DNA of 64,000 nt, from the NCBI GenBank assembly GCA_013334825.1, contig JAAXWR010000001.1, positions 75,769-139,768 of the forward strand, given 5' to 3'. Both the position numbers and the translations under genes were made by a program. Shown here piece after piece: positions 3,562-36,259 of this stretch; positions within the stretch are counted from its first letter, which is position 1; every line of letters starts with the position of its first letter. This DNA is from Candidatus Yonathbacteria bacterium (GTDB lineage: Bacteria > Patescibacteriota > Minisyncoccia > Phycocordibacterales > JACNGX01). The notes beneath the pieces are model-generated. The model was not told the origin of the DNA. It was given only the letters and a program-made list of their open reading frames with translations, and did not search any database.

Positions 3562-3635
3562 GCGCGTTTAGCTCAGGTGGTTAGAGCGCAGTCCTGATAA
3601 GACTGAGGTCCCAGGTTCGAGTCCTGGAACGCGCA
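3562..3635 (+). tRNA. tRNA-Ile (anticodon GAU)
   Basis: Acceptor GCGCGTT/AACGCGC, D-arm TAGCTCAGGTGGTTAGAGC, anticodon loop CTGATAA, T-arm CCAGGTTCGAGTCCTGG. No encoded CCA. Flanked by a perfect 17-bp inverted repeat (3529-3545 / 3648-3664). Confidence 0.9.
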
Positions 3636-3689
3636 CACGGAACAGTATTGTACTCATTTGTATGACATCCTCGTTTGTGCATATAAGAC

Positions 3690-6968: not shown

Positions 6969-7379
6969 ATGTTATACTACCCTCATATGAACAAAGTCAC
7001 ACATTTTGAATTTCCTTGGGATGACAAGGAACGGGCTCGCGCCTTTTATCAGAACGTTTTTGACTGGAAGCCGTTTGACTGGGAACAGTTCGGCTACACC
7101 AGTTGGCAGACCGGACCGATTGACGAAAAGATGCAACCGACGGAGCCGGGCTTTATCAATGGAGGATCAAGCAAACGTGATCCGGAGATGCCGCACCCGA
7201 TGTTCTACGTTGATGTGGACGACATCGACGCGGCACTCGCCAAAATCACCGTAAACGGTGGCGCAGTCGTGCGTCCCAAAACCCCGCTCGGCGAGAACGG
7301 CGCGATGGGCTTCCTCGCGTGGTTCAAAGATTCCGAAGGCAACATCCTCGGACTCTCCCAGTACAAGAAGGGGGAGTAG
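6969..7379 (+). CDS. VOC (glyoxalase/bleomycin-resistance/PhnB-like) family protein; GC-rich relative to surroundings
   Basis: THFEFPWDD...RARAFYQNVFDW N-terminus typical of the VOC family. Confidence 0.6.
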   Translation: MLYYPHMNKVTHFEFPWDDKERARAFYQNVFDWKPFDWEQFGYTSWQTGPIDEKMQPTEPGFINGGSSKRDPEMPHPMFYVDVDDIDAALAKITVNGGAVVRPKTPLGENGAMGFLAWFKDSEGNILGLSQYKKGE

Positions 7380-7554
7380 AACTATACTCTCAGACGTATT
7401 CTTTCAGAATACAATACAAACACCTTGCGTTAACTCGTGGGGTATTTGTGGAGATAAGACAACTATTTTCTAACCGTTGACACACTACAAGACGAGTGAT
7501 ATTCTCCAATTCGGAAGTACGAACAAACAATATCAATGAATAAATCAGATAATC

Positions 7555-7911
7555 ATGTTACAGCAATCCGATGTACGGGAAGTCTCTCAGGAGATTATCG
7601 AACGTCTCCGTGAAGCCAGCGGTTTTGACGCAGATCATCCTGAAAAAAAAGAAGGGGAAGTGTTTTTGATGAATTCCCCTGACAAGGTCAATCCTGAAAC
7701 GGGACGTACGTTTTTTGAAGACATCCCCTATACGACAAAACGCAAGGGCATATGCGCATACGACAGGGACGGCATCCCGTACGGTTCCTTATTGTTCTAT
7801 GAAAAATATAACAAATTCTCCGGAGTAGGACATTTCCCTGTCTTTGTCGAGGAGTGGGAAATCGGGGATAAATTGTTTGCCGCCATGAAAGCGTTGGGTA
7901 TCGCTTTTTGA
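7555..7911 (+). CDS. hypothetical protein (118 aa)
   Basis: ORF only. Confidence 0.4.
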   Translation: MLQQSDVREVSQEIIERLREASGFDADHPEKKEGEVFLMNSPDKVNPETGRTFFEDIPYTTKRKGICAYDRDGIPYGSLLFYEKYNKFSGVGHFPVFVEEWEIGDKLFAAMKALGIAF

Positions 7912-8073
7912 TGCGTACCAGTATTGTCATTGTTTTTAAGCGCACGCTTCCCAGTCGTGCGCTTTTTATTGTGAAAATGAAATGCTCTGGCGCGCAAAGC
8001 CCATCCGATGTACCATATACGTATGGATTGCCGTGTATACGGTACCATTACCATTCATCTCTAAGACATATAC

Positions 8074-25250: not shown

Positions 25251-27452
25251 CTAAACTTTCTCAAGTAGTGTGAGAAAGTCCTTCAATTTTTGTATTTTTT
25301 CTGGTTCACGCAATTTAATGGTCTCGTGTTGATCGTGCATATGCTCGTGCCAGTTGTTACTTAGAATCTCATCTTTGACTGCACATTTTCCATCGATTTT
25401 TTCTAGATACGCAGATATGCTCCCGTCTGCAAGCGTGCTTTTATCAAGCATGAAGTAATACTTATGTCTCAAGATTCTCTCTAGACATTTTCGGACTTTT
25501 CCTATGGCTTCGTCTACATTACGAGAGTTATCTGCCGCATCTTTAATATATTTGATATCTTTGAAATACTGCTCTTCAATCAACTCATCCACGTCACATT
25601 CTTCAAGTACTGAACCAAATGTTTTAGAATGTTTAATTCTTAGTATTTTCGTATCTGAAGAAGGCAACTTTTCTTGCAGTCTTCCCAAAAAACTATCATC
25701 ATGAGTTAGGATAATTACCTGTTCTGGTAAATCATCACTCTCATTTCTAATATCAATTATTGCTTTTGCTAGATAGTCTTTTCTGTTTGAATCAAAACTT
25801 GAAAAAGGATCATCTAGAATGACTATTTTACTTTTCAAATTTGAATCCGTTTTAAGACTTGAAATGAAAAAAGCCATTGCTAAGAGTCTTCGATCACTGT
25901 CACTGAGTGTGTTTCCAAAATACGCTTTATCCAAAGGCTCTTCATCTGACTGAGAACGTTTATTGGAAATTGGTACTGTTTCCCCATCGATAACAAACTC
26001 ATAATCAAGAAAGTGTGCATCAGATCGTGTGAGATTTGATTTGCTATTTAACTTTTGTATTGTAAAATCTGCCTTTAAAACATCCCTCAAGACCATGTTG
26101 ATTTGTTCCTGATTCTTTTCAATTGTACTTTTCGTTATCTTGTCTATCTTTTTCCGTAATGCATCAATTTTTACTTTCTTCATTTCAACAGCTTTTCCAG
26201 CTTGCTGGTATTTTTCTGCGAGAGTTACACCTTCTTTACTATGGCGGTATTGCGACAATTGAAACTGTTTCAATTCATTTTCAAGACCTTGTAATTTGAG
26301 AGCAGAAAACTCTTGTGTTTTTAATTCATTTAAAATTGAATGTAATTTTTTGATTTCTGAAACAAATACTTGAAAATGACTGTCTTCCGCTTCACAATTG
26401 ATAGGATGATTCAGATTTTTTAGTTTTTTTGCAACATCTTCATCAAGAGCTTTTTTGTTTTCCAACAATAGTTTTTTATCTAAAATATCTTCACACTTAA
26501 CCCCGAGAGAAGTGAATTTCGCTATTTCTGCTTCTGGATCAAAGCGCAAGAATCTCTCTCCGTATGTTTCTATTTCTTGTCGTGTTGTTGTGTAAGTTTC
26601 CCCGAAGACTTTTTTGAAATCCTTAATCAGATCGGTGACTGGTGCAAGATTTTGTCCGCAGAATATACATGCATCTGAATCTTTTTTCAACAAGGTGACA
26701 CCGTCTGCCAGAAAATTCTTTGACGCATGTTCATCATTCCAGTGATTGCGAATATGTTCATCAATATTCTTTTCAGCGGATGTGTCCAGGGTTTTCTGCA
26801 TTGCAGCAAAAAAATTATCAAACGTACTTGCAAGAGGTGATGTTGGTACTAACTGCTTGAGTGCATCACTATTTTTTAGTCTTTGAATTTTTTCTTTTTT
26901 CTTTTCAACCTCCTCATCAATATTTGTAATCTCTATGGCTTTCAAGAAAAAATCAAATGTGCCTAGATCATATTTTGTATATTCTGTTTTTATTTGGTCA
27001 CGTTGTTTCTCTAGAGCATCTTGTTCATCACGCAATTCCTTTAACTTCGTGACTTTTTGTCCCACGTTTTCACCAACAAAGATGCCGTGTAAAGATGATT
27101 TGTGTTTATGATCTATCTCGTCACCTACAAAAACTGAATTATGTATAAAATTGTTATCAAATATAGCAATGTTTGGATTATTCCAATTTCCATTTGCTAG
27201 AGTTAGATGCTTGTTGCTACTATCTAAAATATCAATCACGATGTCGCCAGTGTGCCCAAAACTTTTCTTTCCTTTTATACATTTCTGATCAGAATTTTTG
27301 AGAGATCTAAAAATGGTGGTTAGGGTACTTTTACCATAGGTGTTGTAACCAAAAATGATTGTATGTTTAAGAAACCTTAAATCGTCATTGCCACCATTGG
27401 CAAAGTTTTTGAATTTTCCCAACCCCTCAATTTTTAATATCTTACTAATCAT
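25251..27452 (-). CDS. SMC-like ABC ATPase (733 aa) with a coiled-coil insert carrying CxxC (CIFCGQ, res ~262) and a ~150-aa C-terminal extra domain; candidate RloC/PrrC-like anticodon nuclease
   Basis: Walker A GYNTYGKST, signature-like LSDSDRRLLAMAF, Walker B/D-loop IVILDDPFSSFD, H-loop ILTHDD; C-terminus VRKCLERILRH; last gene of the R-M operon. Confidence 0.45.
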   Translation of the reverse strand: MISKILKIEGLGKFKNFANGGNDDLRFLKHTIIFGYNTYGKSTLTTIFRSLKNSDQKCIKGKKSFGHTGDIVIDILDSSNKHLTLANGNWNNPNIAIFDNNFIHNSVFVGDEIDHKHKSSLHGIFVGENVGQKVTKLKELRDEQDALEKQRDQIKTEYTKYDLGTFDFFLKAIEITNIDEEVEKKKEKIQRLKNSDALKQLVPTSPLASTFDNFFAAMQKTLDTSAEKNIDEHIRNHWNDEHASKNFLADGVTLLKKDSDACIFCGQNLAPVTDLIKDFKKVFGETYTTTRQEIETYGERFLRFDPEAEIAKFTSLGVKCEDILDKKLLLENKKALDEDVAKKLKNLNHPINCEAEDSHFQVFVSEIKKLHSILNELKTQEFSALKLQGLENELKQFQLSQYRHSKEGVTLAEKYQQAGKAVEMKKVKIDALRKKIDKITKSTIEKNQEQINMVLRDVLKADFTIQKLNSKSNLTRSDAHFLDYEFVIDGETVPISNKRSQSDEEPLDKAYFGNTLSDSDRRLLAMAFFISSLKTDSNLKSKIVILDDPFSSFDSNRKDYLAKAIIDIRNESDDLPEQVIILTHDDSFLGRLQEKLPSSDTKILRIKHSKTFGSVLEECDVDELIEEQYFKDIKYIKDAADNSRNVDEAIGKVRKCLERILRHKYYFMLDKSTLADGSISAYLEKIDGKCAVKDEILSNNWHEHMHDQHETIKLREPEKIQKLKDFLTLLEKV

Positions 27453-27458
27453 ACAAAT

Positions 27459-28229
27459 TTATTTCTTCATTCTTTGCTTGGCGATTCTTGCATATTCTTT
27501 ATCTTGCTCAATTCCAATCCATTTTCGACCATATTTTTTTGCTACATATGTCGTTGTGCCACTTCCCAAAAATGGATCAAGAACAATATCGCCTTTGTTG
27601 GAGCTTGCTAAAATAATACGCGTGAGCATTTCCTCAGGCTTTTGCGTAGGATGCAATGCGCGACCATTATCGCCACGCAAGCGCTCTTTTCCTTGGACAA
27701 GCGGAAGTTCCCAGAAATCACGCATTTGTTTTAGGTTTCCGTCCTTTTGCTTATTAGGATTTATTTTCTTTATTTCTTCGTAGTTGAATGTCCATCCACT
27801 TCCTTTTACAGCCCAAATAACAAACTCAGTTGAGTGTGTGAAGACACGCCTTGTCATATTCGGCATGGCGTTTGTCTTGTACCAAGTGATGACGTTATTT
27901 ACTTTGTAATCAAGTTGTTTTAATACAATCATCACCTCCGCGATGTTGTGATAACTACAGGCGACATAAATTGATCCTTTATCTTTCAAAGCTCTATCGC
28001 AAGCACCCAGCCATTTTCTCGTAAATTGTAAATATTCCGGTGCAGACATTTTGTCCCATTCTTCGTCGACCATGTACCAATCTCCGCCAGTCTTGTTGCC
28101 TTTCCAGTGCAAACCGTTTCCAGATAGATTATAAGGAGGATCAGCAAAAACCAAATCAATAGATTTTTCCTCAACCTTTTTATTGAGAGTGTCTATACAG
28201 TCTCCATTGTAAATAATATTTGTTTTCAT
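27459..28229 (-). CDS. beta-class DNA methyltransferase (N6-adenine or N4-cytosine, DPPY motif)
   Basis: DLVFADPPYNL (motif IV) N-terminal, VLDPFLGSGTT (motif I) C-terminal. Confidence 0.85.
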   Translation of the reverse strand: MKTNIIYNGDCIDTLNKKVEEKSIDLVFADPPYNLSGNGLHWKGNKTGGDWYMVDEEWDKMSAPEYLQFTRKWLGACDRALKDKGSIYVACSYHNIAEVMIVLKQLDYKVNNVITWYKTNAMPNMTRRVFTHSTEFVIWAVKGSGWTFNYEEIKKINPNKQKDGNLKQMRDFWELPLVQGKERLRGDNGRALHPTQKPEEMLTRIILASSNKGDIVLDPFLGSGTTTYVAKKYGRKWIGIEQDKEYARIAKQRMKK

Positions 28230-28232
28230 GTT

Positions 28233-30056
28233 TTATGTTTGAGAAATAAGGCTTTCTTGCCATACTGAAATGGTATTTGGAATATTTCGTAACCATTCAT
28301 TTGAATCGCTAAATAATTTTGATGACTCCAAGATTTCATCATACAGGCGAGCAATTTCTGAGTGTTGCAAAAATCTCTTTTTTGATTTCATTTGCACCAA
28401 CACTTTCAACACAGAAACAAATTGTCTAATCGAAAGAGGTATGATTCTTTGTGGTTGTCCCTCGTACTCGTATTTTATTGCTGTCCAGAAAGTGTTTACT
28501 GTATCTCTGTGCAACTTCGGGGCAATAAACAGACAATAGGAAGGCTTGTTATTATGTTTTTGTTCGAAGTCTCGTAAATGTCGCATAACTGGTTGACCTT
28601 CGTTGTACCATTGATCGCGACCATTCAGCATCGTGACTTCACAAATGGCATTAAAACTATCGTAAAAACACTCTATGTCTGGTGTGTTTGCGGGGGCAGT
28701 AAATGTTGGTTCATTGTCGTCACCGACAGGATAGTTTGGTTGAATTTTCAATGCATCATTTAAAGCGTGCAATCCAAGTGCAGATAATTTTTCAAGTAAG
28801 ATCGGACGATCATCAAAATCAAAAATGTTTTCAAGATCATTTATGTAAGATTCGACCTGTTCAATCGCTTGAGATTTACTGTGACTTTCTGCGTTTTGTA
28901 GTTCTCGTCTATATACTCTCAATTCTGTAATATATTTTCTTAGTTCATCAACCTGCATTTCCTGGTGACTCTTAATTTCAAGATTATCTTCCTGCAAAGT
29001 AGATTCGTATTCACGTATTTCCTCAATAAGTCTTTCGGCAATCTCATTATATTTTTCTGCAGTTTCCCAAGGTAGTTTCGGTTCCGAAATATCGGAAATG
29101 TAAGCAAGATAATCTTCTTTTGATTCGAAATGTTTTGCTTGTGCGTTATCATATGCAAGCAGAGAATCAATTTCGATTTTTCTCCTTTCCTCAAGATCAA
29201 CATAGAAACCACCGCCACGAATATGAATGTATCGAGTTAAGCGGAAATAACGGATTGCATTATCTCCATAATCTTGCAAATTGCTTAATAAGCCACCTAT
29301 TTCTTGTTCATCATCGGTTTCTAGAAAATCACTTGCAAACCGCCGTTTGTAAGCATCAAATATTTCTTTTTGCTCCTGCTTTGTTTTGCCACTTAATTCA
29401 TCTCGCAAGGTGATGATTTTTTCTGCATACATGCTGATACTTTGATAATGTATCAAAGTAGGAGCAAAGAGAGACAATTCTTTTTTACTAATGCCTTTTG
29501 CATTGTTGCCACGCGCAGTCTCTTTTTGGTTAACTTCGTTGATTAAATGGAGTGTTCCTATAAACGGTTTGATATCGTAGTCTCCGTTATCTTGATAATC
29601 TCGACTGTCTGGATTTGGTATTTGCCACTTTAAGAAGCTTCTAAAAAATATTTCTCCAAAATCAAAATCATCTTTTAGAAATAATTTTCCTAATTCTGTT
29701 ATTTTTACCTTGTTATCTTCGATGGCGACAAGCCCTATTTTTTTGAGAGGGTTCATTGACTGCCTCCCACGCATTGCAGGATCTTCATAATTTTTCGCAT
29801 TAAAAATTTCTTCCGCCTGCTCAAGAGAGATGTCTCTTGATGGATCATCAACCAAATCAACATGATCTTGCATAAGTCCATTGTAGAATTGGCGACTTCC
29901 ATAACCGTATATTCTGTTCTGGATCAGCAAAATTTGATATTTCTTTTGGTTCTCAAGATTCCACTCAAAATTTTCAAGCTGTTGCAAAACAATCAAGAAA
30001 TTTCTCAATCTCTCAGGATTTCGTAATGTTGTTGTGATTGACCAGGGTTTTTTCAT
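28233..30056 (-). CDS. putative restriction endonuclease (607 aa; size and two-MTase context suggest a Type IIS, AlwI-family-like enzyme)
   Basis: AT-rich ORF sandwiched between two MTase genes with 2-3 nt spacers; possible PD...ExK-like PDIE...CEVT near the C-terminus; family assignment is inference only. Confidence 0.4.
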   Translation of the reverse strand: MKKPWSITTTLRNPERLRNFLIVLQQLENFEWNLENQKKYQILLIQNRIYGYGSRQFYNGLMQDHVDLVDDPSRDISLEQAEEIFNAKNYEDPAMRGRQSMNPLKKIGLVAIEDNKVKITELGKLFLKDDFDFGEIFFRSFLKWQIPNPDSRDYQDNGDYDIKPFIGTLHLINEVNQKETARGNNAKGISKKELSLFAPTLIHYQSISMYAEKIITLRDELSGKTKQEQKEIFDAYKRRFASDFLETDDEQEIGGLLSNLQDYGDNAIRYFRLTRYIHIRGGGFYVDLEERRKIEIDSLLAYDNAQAKHFESKEDYLAYISDISEPKLPWETAEKYNEIAERLIEEIREYESTLQEDNLEIKSHQEMQVDELRKYITELRVYRRELQNAESHSKSQAIEQVESYINDLENIFDFDDRPILLEKLSALGLHALNDALKIQPNYPVGDDNEPTFTAPANTPDIECFYDSFNAICEVTMLNGRDQWYNEGQPVMRHLRDFEQKHNNKPSYCLFIAPKLHRDTVNTFWTAIKYEYEGQPQRIIPLSIRQFVSVLKVLVQMKSKKRFLQHSEIARLYDEILESSKLFSDSNEWLRNIPNTISVWQESLISQT

Positions 30057-30058
30057 AA

Positions 30059-31867
30059 TTATTTTGTTACTTTACAGTAGAAAATGCGTTCCGCATTATC
30101 TTCTCCGTTACTTTTTCCTGTCGTAAAGGCTTTGTAATCTTTTTCAAAAATCTCAACATCACCCTTGTCGTTTAGAATTTGTAGAATTTCATCATCACTC
30201 ATACGCGCATTAGAACGCCCATCTTTGGAATCTCCAGTATTATTGTATGAAAGTAAAATATGCTCGCAGTTTGCATTTCTGATAAGGTCTGCAAAAGCAC
30301 TCGTTGCACTTTTTAGGCAATAGTCACTTTTAATGTGAGAGCGATCCATTTTTTTACCAATCCCAATAACCTCTGGCTTTTTCCATTCCGCAAGATTTTC
30401 TAAAAGATGGTAGGCATCCGAGTATTGACGTGAATTATATGGTGGATCTACGTATAAAACATCACAAGAAATTTTTCTGATAAGGGTATTTGCGTCTTCT
30501 CTATAAATTTCATTATTTGTGTTGCGAATGTAATCAACATCAGGAATCAAAAGCTTTATGGGCTGCAACATGTCTAGCTTTTTACGAAAAGCGTCATAAT
30601 GACCAACGGTATTGGCAACTTTATCGACAGCATAAAGCAAGGAACAAATCAAAATATTTTTTTCTTCCTCATTTTCTGCTATCTTTTCAATTTCTGCACG
30701 CATTGCCCCAATCTTTCTTGCGTTTTCTTTTGTAAAATACGTCCCGCCAAAATGTTCAGAAAAATAGTTTTCCTTGTCGTTCGATAAATTATTAAGAACC
30801 TCTATCTTTTCAGAGATGCCTTGTCGCATGTCCCGATTGACTCCCAAAAACGCATATAGGCAAGCATAATTTGCTGAGAGAAAATCATTGGAAATGATTT
30901 TGATTTCTGGACTATTGAACCTTTCTCCAACGACACCTGTGCCTGCAAAAATATCGCAAAGTGAATTGATTGATCCACATTTTTCAGAAATTATGTCTTC
31001 GATAAATCCAAGCAATTTGTGTTTATTTCCCAAATATCTTCTGTTTTGAAGTTGGAAATACCCGCTTTTTGATGCTTGGGGCTGGAAGTAATGTTTATCA
31101 ATTTTTTTTATACTTACTTCGTAAGTCGGTTTTTCAATTTCTAATAGACCAAACAGCGTTTCTTGCATCCCGTCAGCGACATAATCAAAACCTTTATTTT
31201 GATCCTTTAGTTTTTCGTAAAAACTGTAATATCCTTTTTGAGAGACAATGACAAAATCAATGACAGAAATTCCCATTATTTCTCCTGCTTGTGCTATTTT
31301 TTCAACAATTTGAATATCTTTCTCGCTCGGCGTTGAATCACCAGACGGATGATTGTGTATAAGAATCACGCTTGCGGCGTTAAGTTCTGTTGCAGGATAG
31401 AAAATCTCTCTCGGGTGCAGTAGTGTCTTATCAAGAAGTCCAACACTGATAACTTCTTTTTTTAATAAAATATTTCTTGCATTCAGATACAGACAAACGA
31501 GATGTTCTTTTTTCTTATCTCTCAAATCGTAAGTTAAAGAGATAACATCTTGAGAATTACTGATTTTTATTTCGTTTGTCCGATCATCTGCATAAAATCT
31601 TTTTACTAAAGAAATTGCTGACGCAATTTGCAACGCTTTTGCTTGTCCGATTCCAGAGATTTCTTGCAAATTATCAACGGTAATATTCAAAAAGTTTTTG
31701 CCAAATTTCCTAATTATTTCTTGAGACAATTCTTGAACATTCGTGCCTTTGATACCGCTACCGAGCAAAATAGCCAAAAGATCACTTTTTGAAAGTGCTT
31801 CAGGACCTTTCTTGAGAAATCTTTCTCGCGGTCTATCAATTTTTGGAATATCTTTGATCTTTGTCAT
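30059..31867 (-). CDS. fusion protein: N-terminal RadC-like JAB/MPN domain + C-terminal Dam-family (alpha-class, D12) N6-adenine DNA methyltransferase
   Basis: RadC: HLVCLYLNARN...ILIHNHPSGDSTPSEKDIQI; MTase: RRYLGNKHKLL (motif I region), DVLYVDPPYNS (motif IV). Confidence 0.8.
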   Translation of the reverse strand: MTKIKDIPKIDRPRERFLKKGPEALSKSDLLAILLGSGIKGTNVQELSQEIIRKFGKNFLNITVDNLQEISGIGQAKALQIASAISLVKRFYADDRTNEIKISNSQDVISLTYDLRDKKKEHLVCLYLNARNILLKKEVISVGLLDKTLLHPREIFYPATELNAASVILIHNHPSGDSTPSEKDIQIVEKIAQAGEIMGISVIDFVIVSQKGYYSFYEKLKDQNKGFDYVADGMQETLFGLLEIEKPTYEVSIKKIDKHYFQPQASKSGYFQLQNRRYLGNKHKLLGFIEDIISEKCGSINSLCDIFAGTGVVGERFNSPEIKIISNDFLSANYACLYAFLGVNRDMRQGISEKIEVLNNLSNDKENYFSEHFGGTYFTKENARKIGAMRAEIEKIAENEEEKNILICSLLYAVDKVANTVGHYDAFRKKLDMLQPIKLLIPDVDYIRNTNNEIYREDANTLIRKISCDVLYVDPPYNSRQYSDAYHLLENLAEWKKPEVIGIGKKMDRSHIKSDYCLKSATSAFADLIRNANCEHILLSYNNTGDSKDGRSNARMSDDEILQILNDKGDVEIFEKDYKAFTTGKSNGEDNAERIFYCKVTK

Positions 31868-31869
31868 AA

Positions 31870-32079
31870 TTATTTCAAAAGGGTATCGATACTCACGCTA
31901 AGCACCTTGGCGACCTTTTCCATTGTCCTAATTGTAAGATTTTGTTTGCCGTTCTCGACATTGCTAATATATGCTCGGTCTAATCCCAAATCTCGGCAAA
32001 TGTCGCCTTGCGACATGCCTTTTTCGAGCCGAATCTTTTTCATGTTTTCGCCAAATTTTTGTGCTGTGGTTTTTGCCAT
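31870..32079 (-). CDS. XRE-family helix-turn-helix transcriptional regulator (candidate R-M controller protein)
   Basis: MAKTTAQKFGENMKKIRLEKGMSQGDICRDLGLDRAYISNVENGKQNLTIRTMEKVAKVL; first gene of the operon. Confidence 0.75.
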   Translation of the reverse strand: MAKTTAQKFGENMKKIRLEKGMSQGDICRDLGLDRAYISNVENGKQNLTIRTMEKVAKVLSVSIDTLLK

Positions 32080-32239
32080 AATGTATGAAAACTTATCAAC
32101 ATTGGTATTATAGCATTCTATTGTGTTTTGGCTCAATGTTAAGCTATAATACAAGTGCGCAAAACAGTATTTTTATGAAGCGTCGGAACCAAAACCAAAA
32201 TTTTCCTTTCCATTTTTTGTCGGCTCCGCTCCTACGCAC

Positions 32240-32620
32240 CGCCGAAAAAGGGGAGGGAGGGAGGGATTCTCTCCTTACAGGAGCAGTACAGGTTTTCCAT
32301 TTTTTTGGAGCAAAGCACCTCAAACATATGGGAGAACCTTTTTCCGCGACATCCCCGCTCTTTGCTCCGCAAAGGACGGGGTGCGCGGACCCGCCCAGCT
32401 CTTTCAAAAAGGGCTGGGCGGGCGAATCATTTCTGGGAGGGATTCGGTCACCAGTTCTAAGCATATTGCTCCAAGTATTCGCAATCCGCTAAGAACTCGC
32501 GACCCCGTCGCCGCGCTCCGACAAGATAAATCTTGTCGGGCTTCGCGCGCGGCTTTTTCGAATCCCTCCCTCTCTCGCAACATATAAATCGCCGGGCGAA
32601 TTCTCGCCCGGCTCATTATG
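32240..32620. repeat. GC-rich non-coding stretch with multiple partial copies of the tRNA-Ser T-arm/acceptor motif (GGAGGGATTC / GAATCCCTCC) and a long inverted repeat abutting the tRNA 3' end
   Basis: Copies at ~32246, ~32436, 32560-32583 (inverted) and in the tRNA itself; no coherent ORF; overlapping ORFs on both strands are spurious. Confidence 0.6.
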
Positions 32621-32623
32621 TTG

Positions 32624-32710
32624 CGGAGAGGGAGGGATTCGAACCCTCGAGACGATTGCTCGCCTAACACCTTAGCAGGGTGCCCCGTTCGACCGCTCCG
32701 GCACCTCTCC
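32624..32710 (-). tRNA. tRNA-Ser (anticodon GCU), long variable arm
   Basis: RC: GGAGAGG-TG-CCGGAGCGGTCGAACGG-GGCACC-CTGCTAA-GGTGT-[long variable arm]-GAGGGTTCGAATCCCTC-CCTCTCC-G. Confidence 0.88.
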
Positions 32711-35212: not shown

Positions 35213-35962
35213 ATGAAAAAGAAAGTAATGAAAATAGTAGCCCCCACAGAGCATGTGACACGATCAAAATCATCGACGTCAACACGCGTGAAAGAAAAGA
35301 CGCGCGATGTTGTCGTGTATCAAACAAAGTCGGGAGCTATTGAGCTTCGGGGGGATAATGTGCATGAGACCGTATGGGCGACCCAGGCGCAGATTGCTGA
35401 TGTTTTTTGGGTTGATGTGAGAACGGTAAATGAACATATCAAAAATATTTATAAAATGAAAGAATTGACAGAAGAAGGAACTATCCGGAATTTTCGGATA
35501 GTTCGAAAGGAAGGACATCGTGAAGTTTTTCGCGATGTGATGCACTACAATCTCGATATGATTCTTTCTGTTGGGTATAGGGTTAATTCAAAAACGGCGA
35601 CAGAATTTCGCCAGTGGGCGACCAAGACACTCCGTGATCATATAGTGAAAGGATACACATTTAACGCATCACGAATTGCAACACAGTATGATGCGTTTAT
35701 CAAAGACGTAAGGAATATCCAAGCGCTTTTACCTGAGCATGTCGCACTTGACCCAAATAACGTTCTTGAACTGGTGAAAGAATTTGCCGACGTGTGGGTA
35801 TCACTCGACGCATATGATAAAGAAACACTTTCTCTCAAACAGACGAGTAAGAAAAAAGTAACCCTCGATACAGAAAAACTTTTAAGGGCAATTGGTGACT
35901 TGAAGATGAGTTTCATGAAAAAAGGAGAAACGACGGAGCTTTTTGCGTCTGAACGTGGATAG
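35213..35962 (+). CDS. RhuM-family (virulence_RhuM) DNA-binding protein; ends at an in-frame TAG immediately before a Doc/Fic domain ORF
   Basis: VWATQAQIADVF...VNEHIKNIY...EVFRDVMHYNLDMILSVGYRVNSKTATEFRQWAT. Confidence 0.75.
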   Translation: MKKKVMKIVAPTEHVTRSKSSTSTRVKEKTRDVVVYQTKSGAIELRGDNVHETVWATQAQIADVFWVDVRTVNEHIKNIYKMKELTEEGTIRNFRIVRKEGHREVFRDVMHYNLDMILSVGYRVNSKTATEFRQWATKTLRDHIVKGYTFNASRIATQYDAFIKDVRNIQALLPEHVALDPNNVLELVKEFADVWVSLDAYDKETLSLKQTSKKKVTLDTEKLLRAIGDLKMSFMKKGETTELFASERG

Positions 35963-35968
35963 GGGAAT

Positions 35969-36259
35969 GTGGAAGGTATTGTTGGAAATGTCATGAAATC
36001 ATTTGGTGGTAAAGATGTGTATTCGTCGATTGAGGAAAAGGCTGCGCATTTCTTGTATTTTATGGTGAAGAATCATCCATTTTCTGATGGTAATAAGCGT
36101 TCGGGCGCATTTTCCTTTGTATGGTTTTTGCGAACATTTCGTGTGAAAGGTGGACGCATGATTGCCCCTGCAACATTGACCGCGCTTACTCTTCTTATTG
36201 CGGAGAGCGACCCAAAGAAAAAAGCTCAGATGACCGCGCTCGTAACACGACTTTTGTAA
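35969..36259 (+). CDS. Doc/Fic-family domain protein, same frame as the upstream RhuM ORF
   Basis: Doc-type motif HPFSDGNKRSG. Confidence 0.7.
   Translation: MEGIVGNVMKSFGGKDVYSSIEEKAAHFLYFMVKNHPFSDGNKRSGAFSFVWFLRTFRVKGGRMIAPATLTALTLLIAESDPKKKAQMTALVTRLL

Follow-up and report, generated by a model that had tools for sequence, protein, structure and literature searches.

A RadC–adenine methyltransferase fusion with a candidate clamp-binding linker motif in a predicted Type IIS restriction-modification cassette

Gene organisation of the locus

The window analysed here is a 64,000-nucleotide stretch of a Candidatus Yonathbacteria contig (JAAXWR010000001.1, positions 75,769 to 139,768), and all coordinates refer to this stretch. 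The locus contains a compact operon on the reverse strand, in the order C, RadC·M1, R, M2 and then an AAA_13 gene, with gaps of 2-6 nt between genes. The features are as follows:

32623..32710 (-), tRNA-Ser(GCT), island border; its 3' end recurs as three partial copies within 32259-32570
31870..32154 (-), small HTH_3 protein, probably a controller (C) protein (HTH_3 E=4e-15; PADLOC Control_protein E=1e-16)
30059..31867 (-), RadC·M1 fusion gene, 602 aa: RadC (HhH+JAB), linker and D12 N6-adenine DNA methyltransferase (MTase)
28233..30056 (-), R, AlwI / Nt.BspD6I-family Type IIS restriction or nicking endonuclease, 607 aa (RE_AlwI PF09491, E=1e-85, 288 bits)
27459..28229 (-), second MTase M2, 256 aa: beta-class N6_N4, CcrM/HinfI-like adenine methylase
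25251..27452 (-), AAA_13 ATPase, 733 aa (PADLOC defence candidate PDC-S06)

The C protein probably starts from the ATG at 32079. The stop of its gene is separated by 2 nt from the start codon of the fusion, and the fusion stop lies 2 nt from the endonuclease start. A C gene is located upstream in only a minority of the related loci (L005, L009, L015, L031, L087). Promoter-like sites were located upstream of the C gene at 32142-32107 but are generic and not above chance; scans for promoters and terminators yielded no more hits than shuffled sequence did.

The endonuclease was matched to Nt.BspD6I in the PDB (2ewf, E=3e-31), and its best PADLOC model was 'Type II nicking endonuclease' (E=3e-135). 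The cassette carries two adenine MTase genes, of the D12 (M1) and N6_N4 (M2) types. Asymmetric sites of Type IIS systems are handled by two MTases (PMC4081073), and M1 and M2 are predicted to represent this usual solution, with one methylase per strand. K-mer counts in the window were uninformative on the site (GAGTC 0.82 and GGATC 1.31 of expectation), and GATC was generally depleted (0.53 of expectation), a depletion not attributable to the RadC·M1 cassette. A recognition site other than GATC is hinted at, because M2 is CcrM/HinfI-like and because a related cassette (L084) co-occurs with a DpnI-like gene.

About 30 genomes, spread over many phyla, have the genes RadC·M1-R-M2 in colinear arrangement, and nucleotide homology to the related loci is bounded exactly by 27457-31881. 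As judged from these alignments, the unit conserved between genomes is the three-gene core only. The AAA_13 gene begins 6 nt downstream of M2, within the low-GC island that holds the cassette, and AAA_13 genes trail some cassettes (those of the window, L025, L039 and L087); as a conserved partner it was rejected on sequence grounds, only ATPase motifs being common between loci. The copies of the tRNA-Ser 3' end are present on one side only. Around the cassette, no conserved att repeats or inverted repeats were found, the homology stopping at the first and last core codons. Plasmid, phage and viral-contig collections contained no full-length match to the fusion, and the cassette was not found there.

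Domains and motifs of the fusion gene

RadC·M1 is a single ATG-to-stop frame with exactly the bounds given above and no interruption (ORF listing), as proposed in a first-pass annotation made from the sequence letters. It is divided as follows:

31634..31858 (-), UPF0758_N / helix-hairpin-helix (HhH) DNA-binding domain of RadC, aa 4-78 (Pfam PF20582, E=3e-23)
31211..31564 (-), RadC-type JAB domain, aa 102-219 (Pfam, E=3e-38)
31316..31357 (-), JAMM zinc motif HNHPSGDSTPSEKD, aa 171-184 (37-sequence alignment)
31037..31210 (-), inter-domain linker, aa 220-277, ~55 aa, prone to indels
31145..31192 (-), conserved linker motif DYVADGMQETLFGLL, aa 226-241
31151-31165 (-), motif core QETLF, candidate beta-sliding-clamp-binding motif, aa 235-239
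30062..31036 (-), D12-class (alpha-group) N6-adenine MTase domain, aa 278-602

The zinc site H-x-H-x7-S-x2-D is intact in the RadC half. In an alignment of 37 homologues, H171, H173 and D184 were invariant, and E154 and S181 were kept in at least 90% of the sequences. The RadC structure 2qlc was matched over aa 100-218 (E=3.5e-25), and the protein scored 220.5 bits with the RadC equivalog model NF000642 (NCBIfam, cutoff 180) and 207.6 bits with TIGR00608 (cutoff 133.85). The N-terminal part is a full-length RadC whose catalytic zinc site is preserved.

The D12 domain was matched by MethyltransfD12 PF02086 (aa 278-508, E=5e-34) and by the PADLOC MTase_II model PDLC03373 (E=1e-112). Its motifs follow in the order RRYLGNK (276-282), DIFAGTGVVG (305-314) and DPPY (474-477). 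We take RRYLGNK to be the N-terminal Dam-type (R/K)(Y/W)xGxK motif of alpha-class MTases, and DIFAGTGVVG to be the canonical AdoMet motif I (FxGxG), by alpha-class motif order. With the 'dam' subfamily model TIGR00571 (NCBIfam), RadC·M1 scored only 23.9 bits, short of the cutoff (114.85), and is for this reason not regarded as a Dam orthologue; the domain is predicted to be an ordinary adenine methylase of the R-M type.

The strings quoted in the first-pass annotation were all located (HNHPSGDSTPSEKD at aa 171-184, RRYLGNKHKLL at aa 276-286, DVLYVDPPY at aa 469-477), and both domain models that it named, RadC PF04002 and MethyltransfD12 PF02086, matched. It had allowed for an N-terminus that fails RadC models, and the NF000642 score speaks against this. 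Two details had to be corrected: RRYLGNKHKLL had been taken for motif I, which lies at aa 305-314, and the term 'Dam-family' holds at the level of the D12 class but fails for Dam in the strict sense. The JAB domain had also been likened to those of mobile elements, whereas the protein has the full, untruncated HhH+JAB of the housekeeping type.

For the full protein, structure prediction (AF2, 37-sequence alignment) was poor (pLDDT 49.8, pTM 0.30). In this model, aa 224-283 gave a weak hint of lacking structure and the linker had no predicted secondary structure; because the model is poor overall, disorder of the linker is weakly supported.

Recurrence and selection

At least 35 independent GTDB assemblies have RadC and D12 in a single open frame, which excludes an assembly or frameshift artefact. 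Across many phyla, the fusion is represented by at least 119 protein clusters, and the three Pfam domains and a length of ~600 aa are common to all of the best 120 protein clusters. The survey of CPR relatives suggested by the first-pass annotation found recurrence that is not CPR-specific: many of the carriers are Patescibacteria, and beyond the CPR the fusion is carried by Gammaproteobacteria, Spirochaetes, Cloacimonadota, Omnitrophota, Margulisiibacteriota and others. The carriers seen so far are all uncultured organisms, and the fusion cassette is also found in genomes of 2-5 Mb in many phyla.

Estimated by region, dN/dS was 0.11 for HhH, 0.09 for JAB, 0.17 for the linker (the highest value within the protein) and 0.08 for D12. 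Every part of RadC·M1 is, by these estimates, under purifying selection (dN/dS ~0.1).

RadC as an exchangeable module

By clustering of RadC sequences, the fused RadCs group apart from solo RadCs. Members of this one clade are joined to methylases of the D12, N6_N4 and C5 types: C5 fusions were found in P0150, P0156, P0216, P0135 and L060, N6_N4 fusions in P0196 and L063, and a fusion to C5+D12 in L052. These fusions adjoin MTaX1, NgoFVII, EcoRII-C and HpaII endonucleases, and this dedicated clade adjoins at least five endonuclease families or R-M types. One subgroup shares 69-85% identity with the window in RadC but only 42-45% in D12. Cassettes lacking RadC are dispersed within the RadC-positive clade, and one of them (L035) has retained the final ~15 aa of RadC.

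The RadC module is, by these distributions, exchangeable and has been repeatedly lost from cassettes. Because it was deleted several times, though under purifying selection, RadC is predicted to be an accessory, dispensable for methylation itself; RadC may contribute little, or in a host-dependent manner, since the cassette stays when it is lost. Other N-termini were found in its place. A LexA-S24-D12 fusion occurs within an AlwI/N6_N4 cassette (P0125, L084), MerR-like HTH N-termini are carried by plasmid relatives of the D12 methylase, and the N-terminus of P0124 consists of HhH only. The plasmid relatives, with D12, a second MTase and an AlwI endonuclease, are without RadC.

As the first-pass annotation had suggested, a functional coupling of RadC and methylase is supported, because the fusion recurs, is under purifying selection and joins the same RadC clade to three unrelated MTase classes. 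The placement of the methylase in an R-M operon was also confirmed by the AlwI-family gene next downstream and the second MTase after it.

The linker motif

Within the variable linker, Q235, L238, F239 and L241 were invariant in the 37-sequence alignment, and the motif has the form Q-x-[TS]-L-F-D-L. The core Q..LF was found in 119/119 close homologues and only once among the five operon proteins. Variants of the pentapeptide in the family include QETLF, QGTLF, QLSLF, QLTLF, QLNLF, QLPLF and QLELF. The motif is also carried by C5-methylase RadC fusions, by the LexA-D12 fusion (as QLPLF), by an Enterococcus HTH-D12 protein (as QLELF) and, at the extreme N-terminus, by relatives lacking RadC (QLALF, QLFLF). 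In a census of 40 family representatives, it was located upstream of the catalytic domain in 14, against 1 match in 12,977 control residues. The motif is absent from some RadC-MTase fusions (P0156, P0196, P0143) and from three derivatives that lack RadC (L040, L043, L048). One carrier (L033) was binned as an archaeon, which would have PCNA and no beta clamp. The linker motif Q-x-[TS]-L-F-D-L, present also in RadC-less, LexA-fused and HTH-fused relatives, is new here.

The beta-clamp-binding consensus of bacteria is QL(S/D)LF (PMC9690074). The QETLF of RadC·M1 differs from it at positions 2-3, clamp motifs being short and degenerate. We infer that the invariant peptide between RadC and methylase is a beta-sliding-clamp-binding motif; the candidate clamp-binding peptide of the linker is DGMQETLFGLLE. 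No clamp-binding motif in a bacterial DNA methylase was found in the searchable literature, and a search of incomplete coverage for a link of RadC to the clamp or to methylases found none, which is absence of evidence only. The clamp idea is new, and also without precedent, because no published report in the literature searched ties RadC or bacterial MTases to the clamp.

A separate methylase from an internal start at M233 was considered and rejected, most fusions having I or V at this position; two relatives lacking RadC (L038 and L045) begin at the equivalent position.

Comparison with known systems

The AlwI-family Type IIS systems (AlwI; Nt.BspD6I/N.BstNBI/MlyI/PleI; the Lactococcus and Enterococcus plasmid systems L088 and L089) likewise have an AlwI-family endonuclease, two adenine methylase domains and a compact operon (PMC4081073). 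The D12 domain of RadC·M1 is 45-48% identical to the plasmid enzymes of these systems. They differ from the window in that RadC is missing, the N-terminus of M1 being absent or a MerR-type HTH, and in that M1 and M2, separate in the window, form one protein in AlwI and in the Enterococcus system. The architecture was rightly called non-standard in the first-pass annotation, characterised and plasmid-borne MTase relatives being without RadC.

Housekeeping RadC (YicR/UPF0758) has the same HhH + JAB architecture and HxHx7Sx2D site as RadC·M1. It is a standalone protein of 218-234 aa that ends before the linker motif, whereas RadC·M1 is a 602-aa fusion inside an R-M cassette. Iyer et al. [quoted passage not shown] RadC is there, as here, a mobile N- or C-terminal module on DNA-acting enzymes of conflict systems, and the available text of both papers lists no RadC-methylase fusion within an R-M operon. 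The polyvalent proteins (Iyer et al. 2017) belong to phages, plasmids and conjugative elements and carry many effector domains, whereas RadC·M1 is chromosomal, has two enzymatic domains and lies beside an endonuclease.

Methylases of the M.SsoII/M.EcoRII type carry an extra DNA-binding module (HTH) in the same N-terminal position, as do the LexA-D12 and MerR-HTH-D12 relatives. RadC·M1 differs from the M.SsoII/M.EcoRII type in having a non-specific HhH plus a metal hydrolase, and in the presence of a separate C protein.

Proposed mechanism and alternative explanations

Our favoured reading, to which we give slightly less than even confidence, is that RadC·M1 is the bifunctional methylase subunit of a horizontally mobile Type IIS R-M cassette, tethered to the clamp and coupled to replication, with RadC co-recruited. 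The linker peptide would dock the protein on beta clamps at or behind the replication fork, and the docked methylase would re-methylate nascent hemimethylated sites before the endonuclease acts. RadC, comprising the HhH DNA-binding domain and the JAB hydrolase, would be carried to the same clamp site, where it may strengthen DNA binding in a non-specific way, act on a DNA structure (for example a nick, a flap or an ss/ds junction), or both. Such a protein would be a bacterial counterpart of Dnmt1-PCNA, the eukaryotic precedent in which a maintenance methylase is tethered to a sliding clamp (PMC9690074). Dnmt1 has a similar short Q-x-x-L-F peptide, placed in a flexible region ahead of the DNA methylase catalytic domain (PMC9690074). 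The logic of re-methylating nascent DNA would be alike, though there is no homology to RadC·M1, whose clamp binding is a candidate property. A broader form of the proposal, for which our confidence is decidedly tentative, is that a whole family of R-M methylases is tethered to the beta clamp via QLxLF and that RadC is a clamp-associated DNA processor repeatedly captured with the motif.

RadC could instead direct the methylase to ssDNA that enters by transformation or conjugation. Newly acquired DNA, and with it the cassette, would then be methylated ahead of restriction; this role would resemble that of DpnA in the DpnII system. Patescibacteria, which make up many of the carriers, are thought to depend on DNA uptake, and RadC is competence-induced in several bacteria. 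We consider this explanation unlikely, given that the cassette was not found on plasmid, phage or viral contigs, that it occurs also in the 2-5 Mb genomes of many phyla, and that the sequence has no feature suggestive of ssDNA specificity. The conserved linker motif, which points to replication coupling, is also left without explanation, and transformation was reported not to need RadC (Attaiech 2008).

Alternatively, RadC might be a regulatory or self-processing peptidase head, bound to DNA and either cleaved off or cleaving a partner such as the endonuclease; the trigger could be, for example, DNA damage from self-restriction, with G-x-Q-x-x-L-F as a cleavage or docking site. The N-terminal slot alternates between LexA (wHTH + self-cleaving S24), MerR-type HTH and RadC (HhH + peptidase-fold JAB). 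The occurrence of LexA-S24-D12 in the same AlwI/N6_N4 cassette type (P0125, L084), the HhH-only N-terminus of P0124 and the invariant JAB catalytic residues agree with such a role. The Q..LF motif, however, persists in relatives without any RadC and is for this reason not simply a JAB substrate. JAB domains of the RadC type are predicted to be without a peptide-tail groove and to act on nucleic acids (PMC5512222). A role in operator binding is unlikely, because HhH domains are not sequence-specific, and the window has a distinct C protein. Taken as a whole, the peptidase explanation appears quite improbable.

RadC might also repair or process nicks made by the endonuclease of its own cassette at transiently unmethylated host sites, lowering the cost of carriage. 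The endonuclease is closest to nicking enzymes (Nt.BspD6I / N.BstNBI; PADLOC E=3e-135), and a nuclease role is predicted for RadC by Iyer et al. The same RadC clade is nevertheless fused to methylases beside the double-strand cutters HpaII, NgoFVII and EcoRII-C, so RadC is tied to the methylase and not to nicking, and we hold out little expectation for a role in nick repair. Finally, although RadC loss leaves the cassette intact, an accidental or neutral fusion, by stop-codon loss between neighbours with RadC hitch-hiking or as an assembly or frameshift artefact, is effectively refuted by the in-frame fusions (at least 35 assemblies, at least 119 clusters), the dN/dS of ~0.1 for both RadC domains, the invariant catalytic site and the joining of the same clade to three unrelated MTase classes.

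Significance

RadC is among the most widespread bacterial proteins without a known activity. Its name has been traced to a mis-assigned mutation, and a nuclease role was predicted for it. A RadC clade repeatedly joined to methylases of three chemistries and kept under strong selection offers a defined partner and phenotypes to test, namely self-restriction, methylation lag and cassette establishment. Should the proposed clamp tethering of RadC·M1 prove true, RadC would, after decades of dispute over its function, gain its first concrete cellular address and an assayable context. If QLxLF binds DnaN, selfish R-M systems would win the race between methylase and endonuclease on new DNA via the clamp; riding the clamp for methylation is known in eukaryotic maintenance methylation and not in bacteria. 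The RadC·M1-R-M2 cassette measures only 4.4 kb and is short enough for synthesis.

Domain composition of the fusion protein

The first-pass annotation had read one ORF at 30059..31867; its exact limits were confirmed, from ATG to stop on the minus strand, and the three strings quoted there were all found in the product. In a tightly spaced operon, with intergenic gaps of 2-6 nt, the fusion is gene 2.

Features of the operon and of the fusion protein (all genes on the minus strand)
31870..32154, gene 1: small HTH_3 protein, matching PADLOC 'Control_protein' models
30059..31867, gene 2: RadC·M1 fusion, single frame, 602 aa
aa 4-78 of the fusion: UPF0758_N, helix-hairpin-helix head of RadC (Pfam E=3e-23)
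aa 102-219 of the fusion: RadC JAB domain (Pfam E=3e-38)
JAB end (aa ~219) to aa 278 of the fusion: RadC-D12 linker, ~55 aa, indel-prone
aa 278-508 of the fusion: MethyltransfD12 domain (Pfam E=5e-34)
28233..30056, gene 3: 607-aa AlwI-family endonuclease, best PADLOC model 'Type II nicking endonuclease'
27459..28229, gene 4: M2, 256-aa beta-class N6_N4 adenine methylase, CcrM/HinfI-like
25251-27452, gene 5: AAA_13 ATPase, PADLOC defence candidate PDC-S06 (E=2e-59)

The N-terminal RadC proposed earlier was matched by both Pfam models and passed the NCBIfam RadC equivalog model (220.5 bits, curated cutoff 180); RadC JAB structure 2qlc was the sole PDB sequence match of the protein. The structure model predicted for the fusion was of poor quality. 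The methylase had been called Dam-family: it belongs to the D12 class, but failed the strict NCBIfam 'dam' model (23.9 bits, cutoff 114.85). The label 'Dam-like motif I' had been given to a string that exists (RRYLGNK), which we take to be the N-terminal Dam-type RYxGNK, separate from the FxGxG AdoMet motif at aa 305-314. By these Pfam, NCBIfam and PDB matches, the N-terminal part is a predicted complete housekeeping-type RadC, ordinary by sequence, and the C-terminal part a predicted D12-class adenine methylase that is no Dam orthologue.

Recurrence and selection

The exact fusion protein was already recorded from a Candidatus Yonathbacteria MAG. In the best 120 protein clusters (75-93% identity, ~600 aa) these three Pfam domains were always present; their contigs reach 4.9 Mb, and public annotation names such proteins 'DNA repair protein RadC' or 'adenine-specific DNA-methyltransferase'. 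Among 79 related loci recovered from GTDB contigs (one genome per species), RadC and D12 shared an open frame at 35 or more; the suggested survey for recurrence came out in favour of a genuine fusion. Median pairwise dN/dS, at dS of 1.4-1.8, was 0.11 (HhH), 0.09 (JAB), 0.17 (linker) and 0.08 (D12). The JAMM ligands H171, H173 and D184 were invariant in the homologue alignment, and 90% or more of its sequences kept E154 and S181.

Operon, island and cassette mobility

A Type IIS enzyme with two methylases, one per strand, is the textbook layout for asymmetric sites (PMC4081073), and the R-M core is an ordinary member of the AlwI-family Type IIS systems. The PDB relative of the endonuclease is the nickase Nt.BspD6I. 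For the D12 domain, the nearest annotated relatives (45-48% identical) belong to AlwI-family systems on Lactococcus and Enterococcus plasmids; these systems likewise have two methylase domains, but no RadC.

The gene order RadC·M1-R-M2 was kept in about 30 genomes: many Patescibacteria lineages, Gammaproteobacteria, Spirochaetes, Cloacimonadota, Omnitrophota, Margulisiibacteriota, Auribacterota and one bin labelled Woesearchaeota. Since all fusion carriers are MAGs, binning errors are possible, for example for the archaeal bin. Nucleotide homology to the window ended sharply at 27457-31881, exactly the three genes; the C gene (gene 1) and a nearby tRNA-Ser were common to the window and one Moraniibacteriota locus (L005) only. 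The cassette is mobile; no copy was found in the plasmid, phage and viral-contig collections searched.

The operon lies in a low-GC island (GC 0.35 vs about 0.44) adjoining tRNA-Ser(GCT). Between the C gene and this tRNA, 32160-32640 is GC-rich and has no ORF; four copies of the 11-mer GAATCCCTCCC, which belongs to the tRNA's 3' T-arm/acceptor part, are confined to this stretch (0.6 expected). The copies resemble the att-type remnants that successive integrations at tRNA-Ser would leave stacked; no repeat matching them was seen at the other end of the island, and no integrase was found. In L005, a tRNA-Ser stands ~2 kb upstream of the cassette.

The AAA_13 gene starts 6 nt past M2. AAA_13 genes also trail a RadC-C5/HpaII/Vsr cassette (L087:3442-6087) and two other D12 cassettes (L025, L039), the four proteins having the ATPase motifs alone in common; R-M with AAA_13 backup defence may be a recurrent pairing.

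RadC as an exchangeable module

RadC-less cassettes with D12 67-84% identical were scattered inside the RadC-bearing clade of the D12 tree; one (L035) retained the final ~15 RadC residues, and in two (L038, L045) the protein starts just ahead of the linker motif, which together indicate that RadC was deleted several times. RadC is a dispensable accessory of the R-M methylase. In a second subgroup (L029, L031, L033, L034, L036, L037, L051), RadC was 69-85% identical to that of the window and D12 only 42-45%, indicating module swapping; the partner there is a distant AlwI homologue. Two of its loci (L029, L036) carry a conserved 282-aa gene (7150-7998) with its stop 2 nt before the fusion, and ~950 bp of extra coding sequence between methylase and AlwI homologue, so their operon layout differs.

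Other RadC-methylase fusions were sought among 50%-identity representatives. RadC was joined to a C5 cytosine methylase (P0150, P0156, P0216, P0135, L060), an N6_N4 methylase (P0196, L063) and a C5-D12 double methylase (L052:1612-4420, at least 936 aa and reaching the contig end). The endonucleases beside them were HpaII, MTaX1, NgoFVII and EcoRII-C, the HpaII neighbourhood also holding Vsr and AAA_13, with an HTH gene upstream. Most fused RadCs fell into one clade of a neighbour-joining tree, apart from solo RadCs; the trees are distance-based and carry no support values (no bootstrap for the RadC tree), so this grouping is indicative only. A dedicated RadC clade appears to move between methylases.

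A conserved Q-x-x-L-F motif in the linker

No part of the protein is less constrained than the linker, and within it Y229, Q235, L238, F239 and L241 are nevertheless invariant. Q-x-x-L-F stood at this position in 119/119 close homologues (QGTLF in 75, QATLF in 20, others) and in most C5 fusions (QSSLF, QKSLF, QMGLF, QMTFF). It also preceded D12 behind other heads: QLPLF in a LexA(wHTH+S24)-D12 fusion occupying the same AlwI/N6_N4 cassette (P0125/L084), QRTLF in P0124, whose N-terminus is HhH-like by eye with no domain match, and QLELF behind the MerR-type HTH of the Enterococcus plasmid enzyme. RadC-less family members have it at the extreme N-terminus (e.g. MSAAQLALF, MNLSETKQLFLF). Of the representatives, 40 have 25 or more residues ahead of the catalytic domain, and 14 of these 40 carry the motif within 60 residues; the control, 12,977 residues from these same proteins, gave one match. 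Across the five operon proteins it was found once only.

Because solo RadCs end before the motif position and RadC-less relatives keep it, this short linear motif stands on its own. Judged by its occurrence, it is independent of RadC, methylase class and partner endonuclease, which points to a universal host factor as its probable ligand. It agrees with the bacterial beta-clamp-binding consensus QL(S/D)LF (PMC9690074); in Dnmt1, a PCNA-binding motif serves methylation of nascent DNA (reviewed in PMC9690074).

Possible role of the fusion

Sequence comparison shows the R-M methylase to bear a RadC head that is intact and under selection, with a conserved Q..LF peptide at the junction. We tentatively favour, at somewhat short of even chances, clamp docking: the peptide would tie the protein to beta clamps trailing the replication fork, and hemimethylated asymmetric sites would be serviced as they emerge, a scenario also raised for fused Type IIS methylases (Pingoud et al.). 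RadC, recruited to the same place, would bind or process DNA there.

Targeting of the fusion to incoming ssDNA, along the lines of the first-pass idea, seems unlikely to us, and a RadC head acting, like LexA, as a regulatory or self-processing peptidase slightly more so. That RadC processes nicks left by the nickase-like endonuclease is improbable. A neutral fusion or artefact is barely credible, the artefact being effectively refuted by the in-frame GTDB loci, the uniform best 120 clusters, the low dN/dS and the invariant JAMM ligands.

Catalogued RadC fusions involve HhH, ArdC, DnaG primase, DinG helicase and polyvalent proteins (PMC3239186, PMC5512222); the portions of these texts searched make no mention of a RadC-methylase fusion within an R-M operon. 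In the literature covered, which was incomplete, no link of RadC or of a bacterial DNA methylase to the clamp was found. New by this comparison are the RadC-methylase combination and its junction motif. They make RadC accessible to experiment and raise a possible link between clamp and methylase in bacteria.

Additional observations

At L084:3121-8282, the LexA DNA-binding domain and S24 self-cleaving peptidase are joined to a D12 methylase of the same family (61% identity), and a gene for a DpnI-like methyl-directed endonuclease comes next. The fusion suggests possible SOS-responsive control of an R-M methylase, and the DpnI-like gene suggests that this cassette type makes no fully methylated GATC. 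Over the entire window, GATC falls far short of expectation (280 observed, 532 expected, ratio 0.53), which suggests that the lineage is or was exposed to GATC-specific restriction, unrelated to or before the cassette.

The 16S rRNA gene (1-1470) is cut at its 5' end by the window edge, and tRNA-Ile(GAT) (3562-3636) lies ~2 kb beyond it; 23S and 5S rRNA had no match in the remaining 62 kb, and the rRNA genes appear unlinked, or the spacer carries an insertion. Just past the island, adjacent plus-strand ORFs of 249 and 96 aa (35213-36259) may form a Fic/Doc toxin-type module, the translated 96-aa ORF carrying the Fic/Doc-type motif HPFSDGNKRSG.
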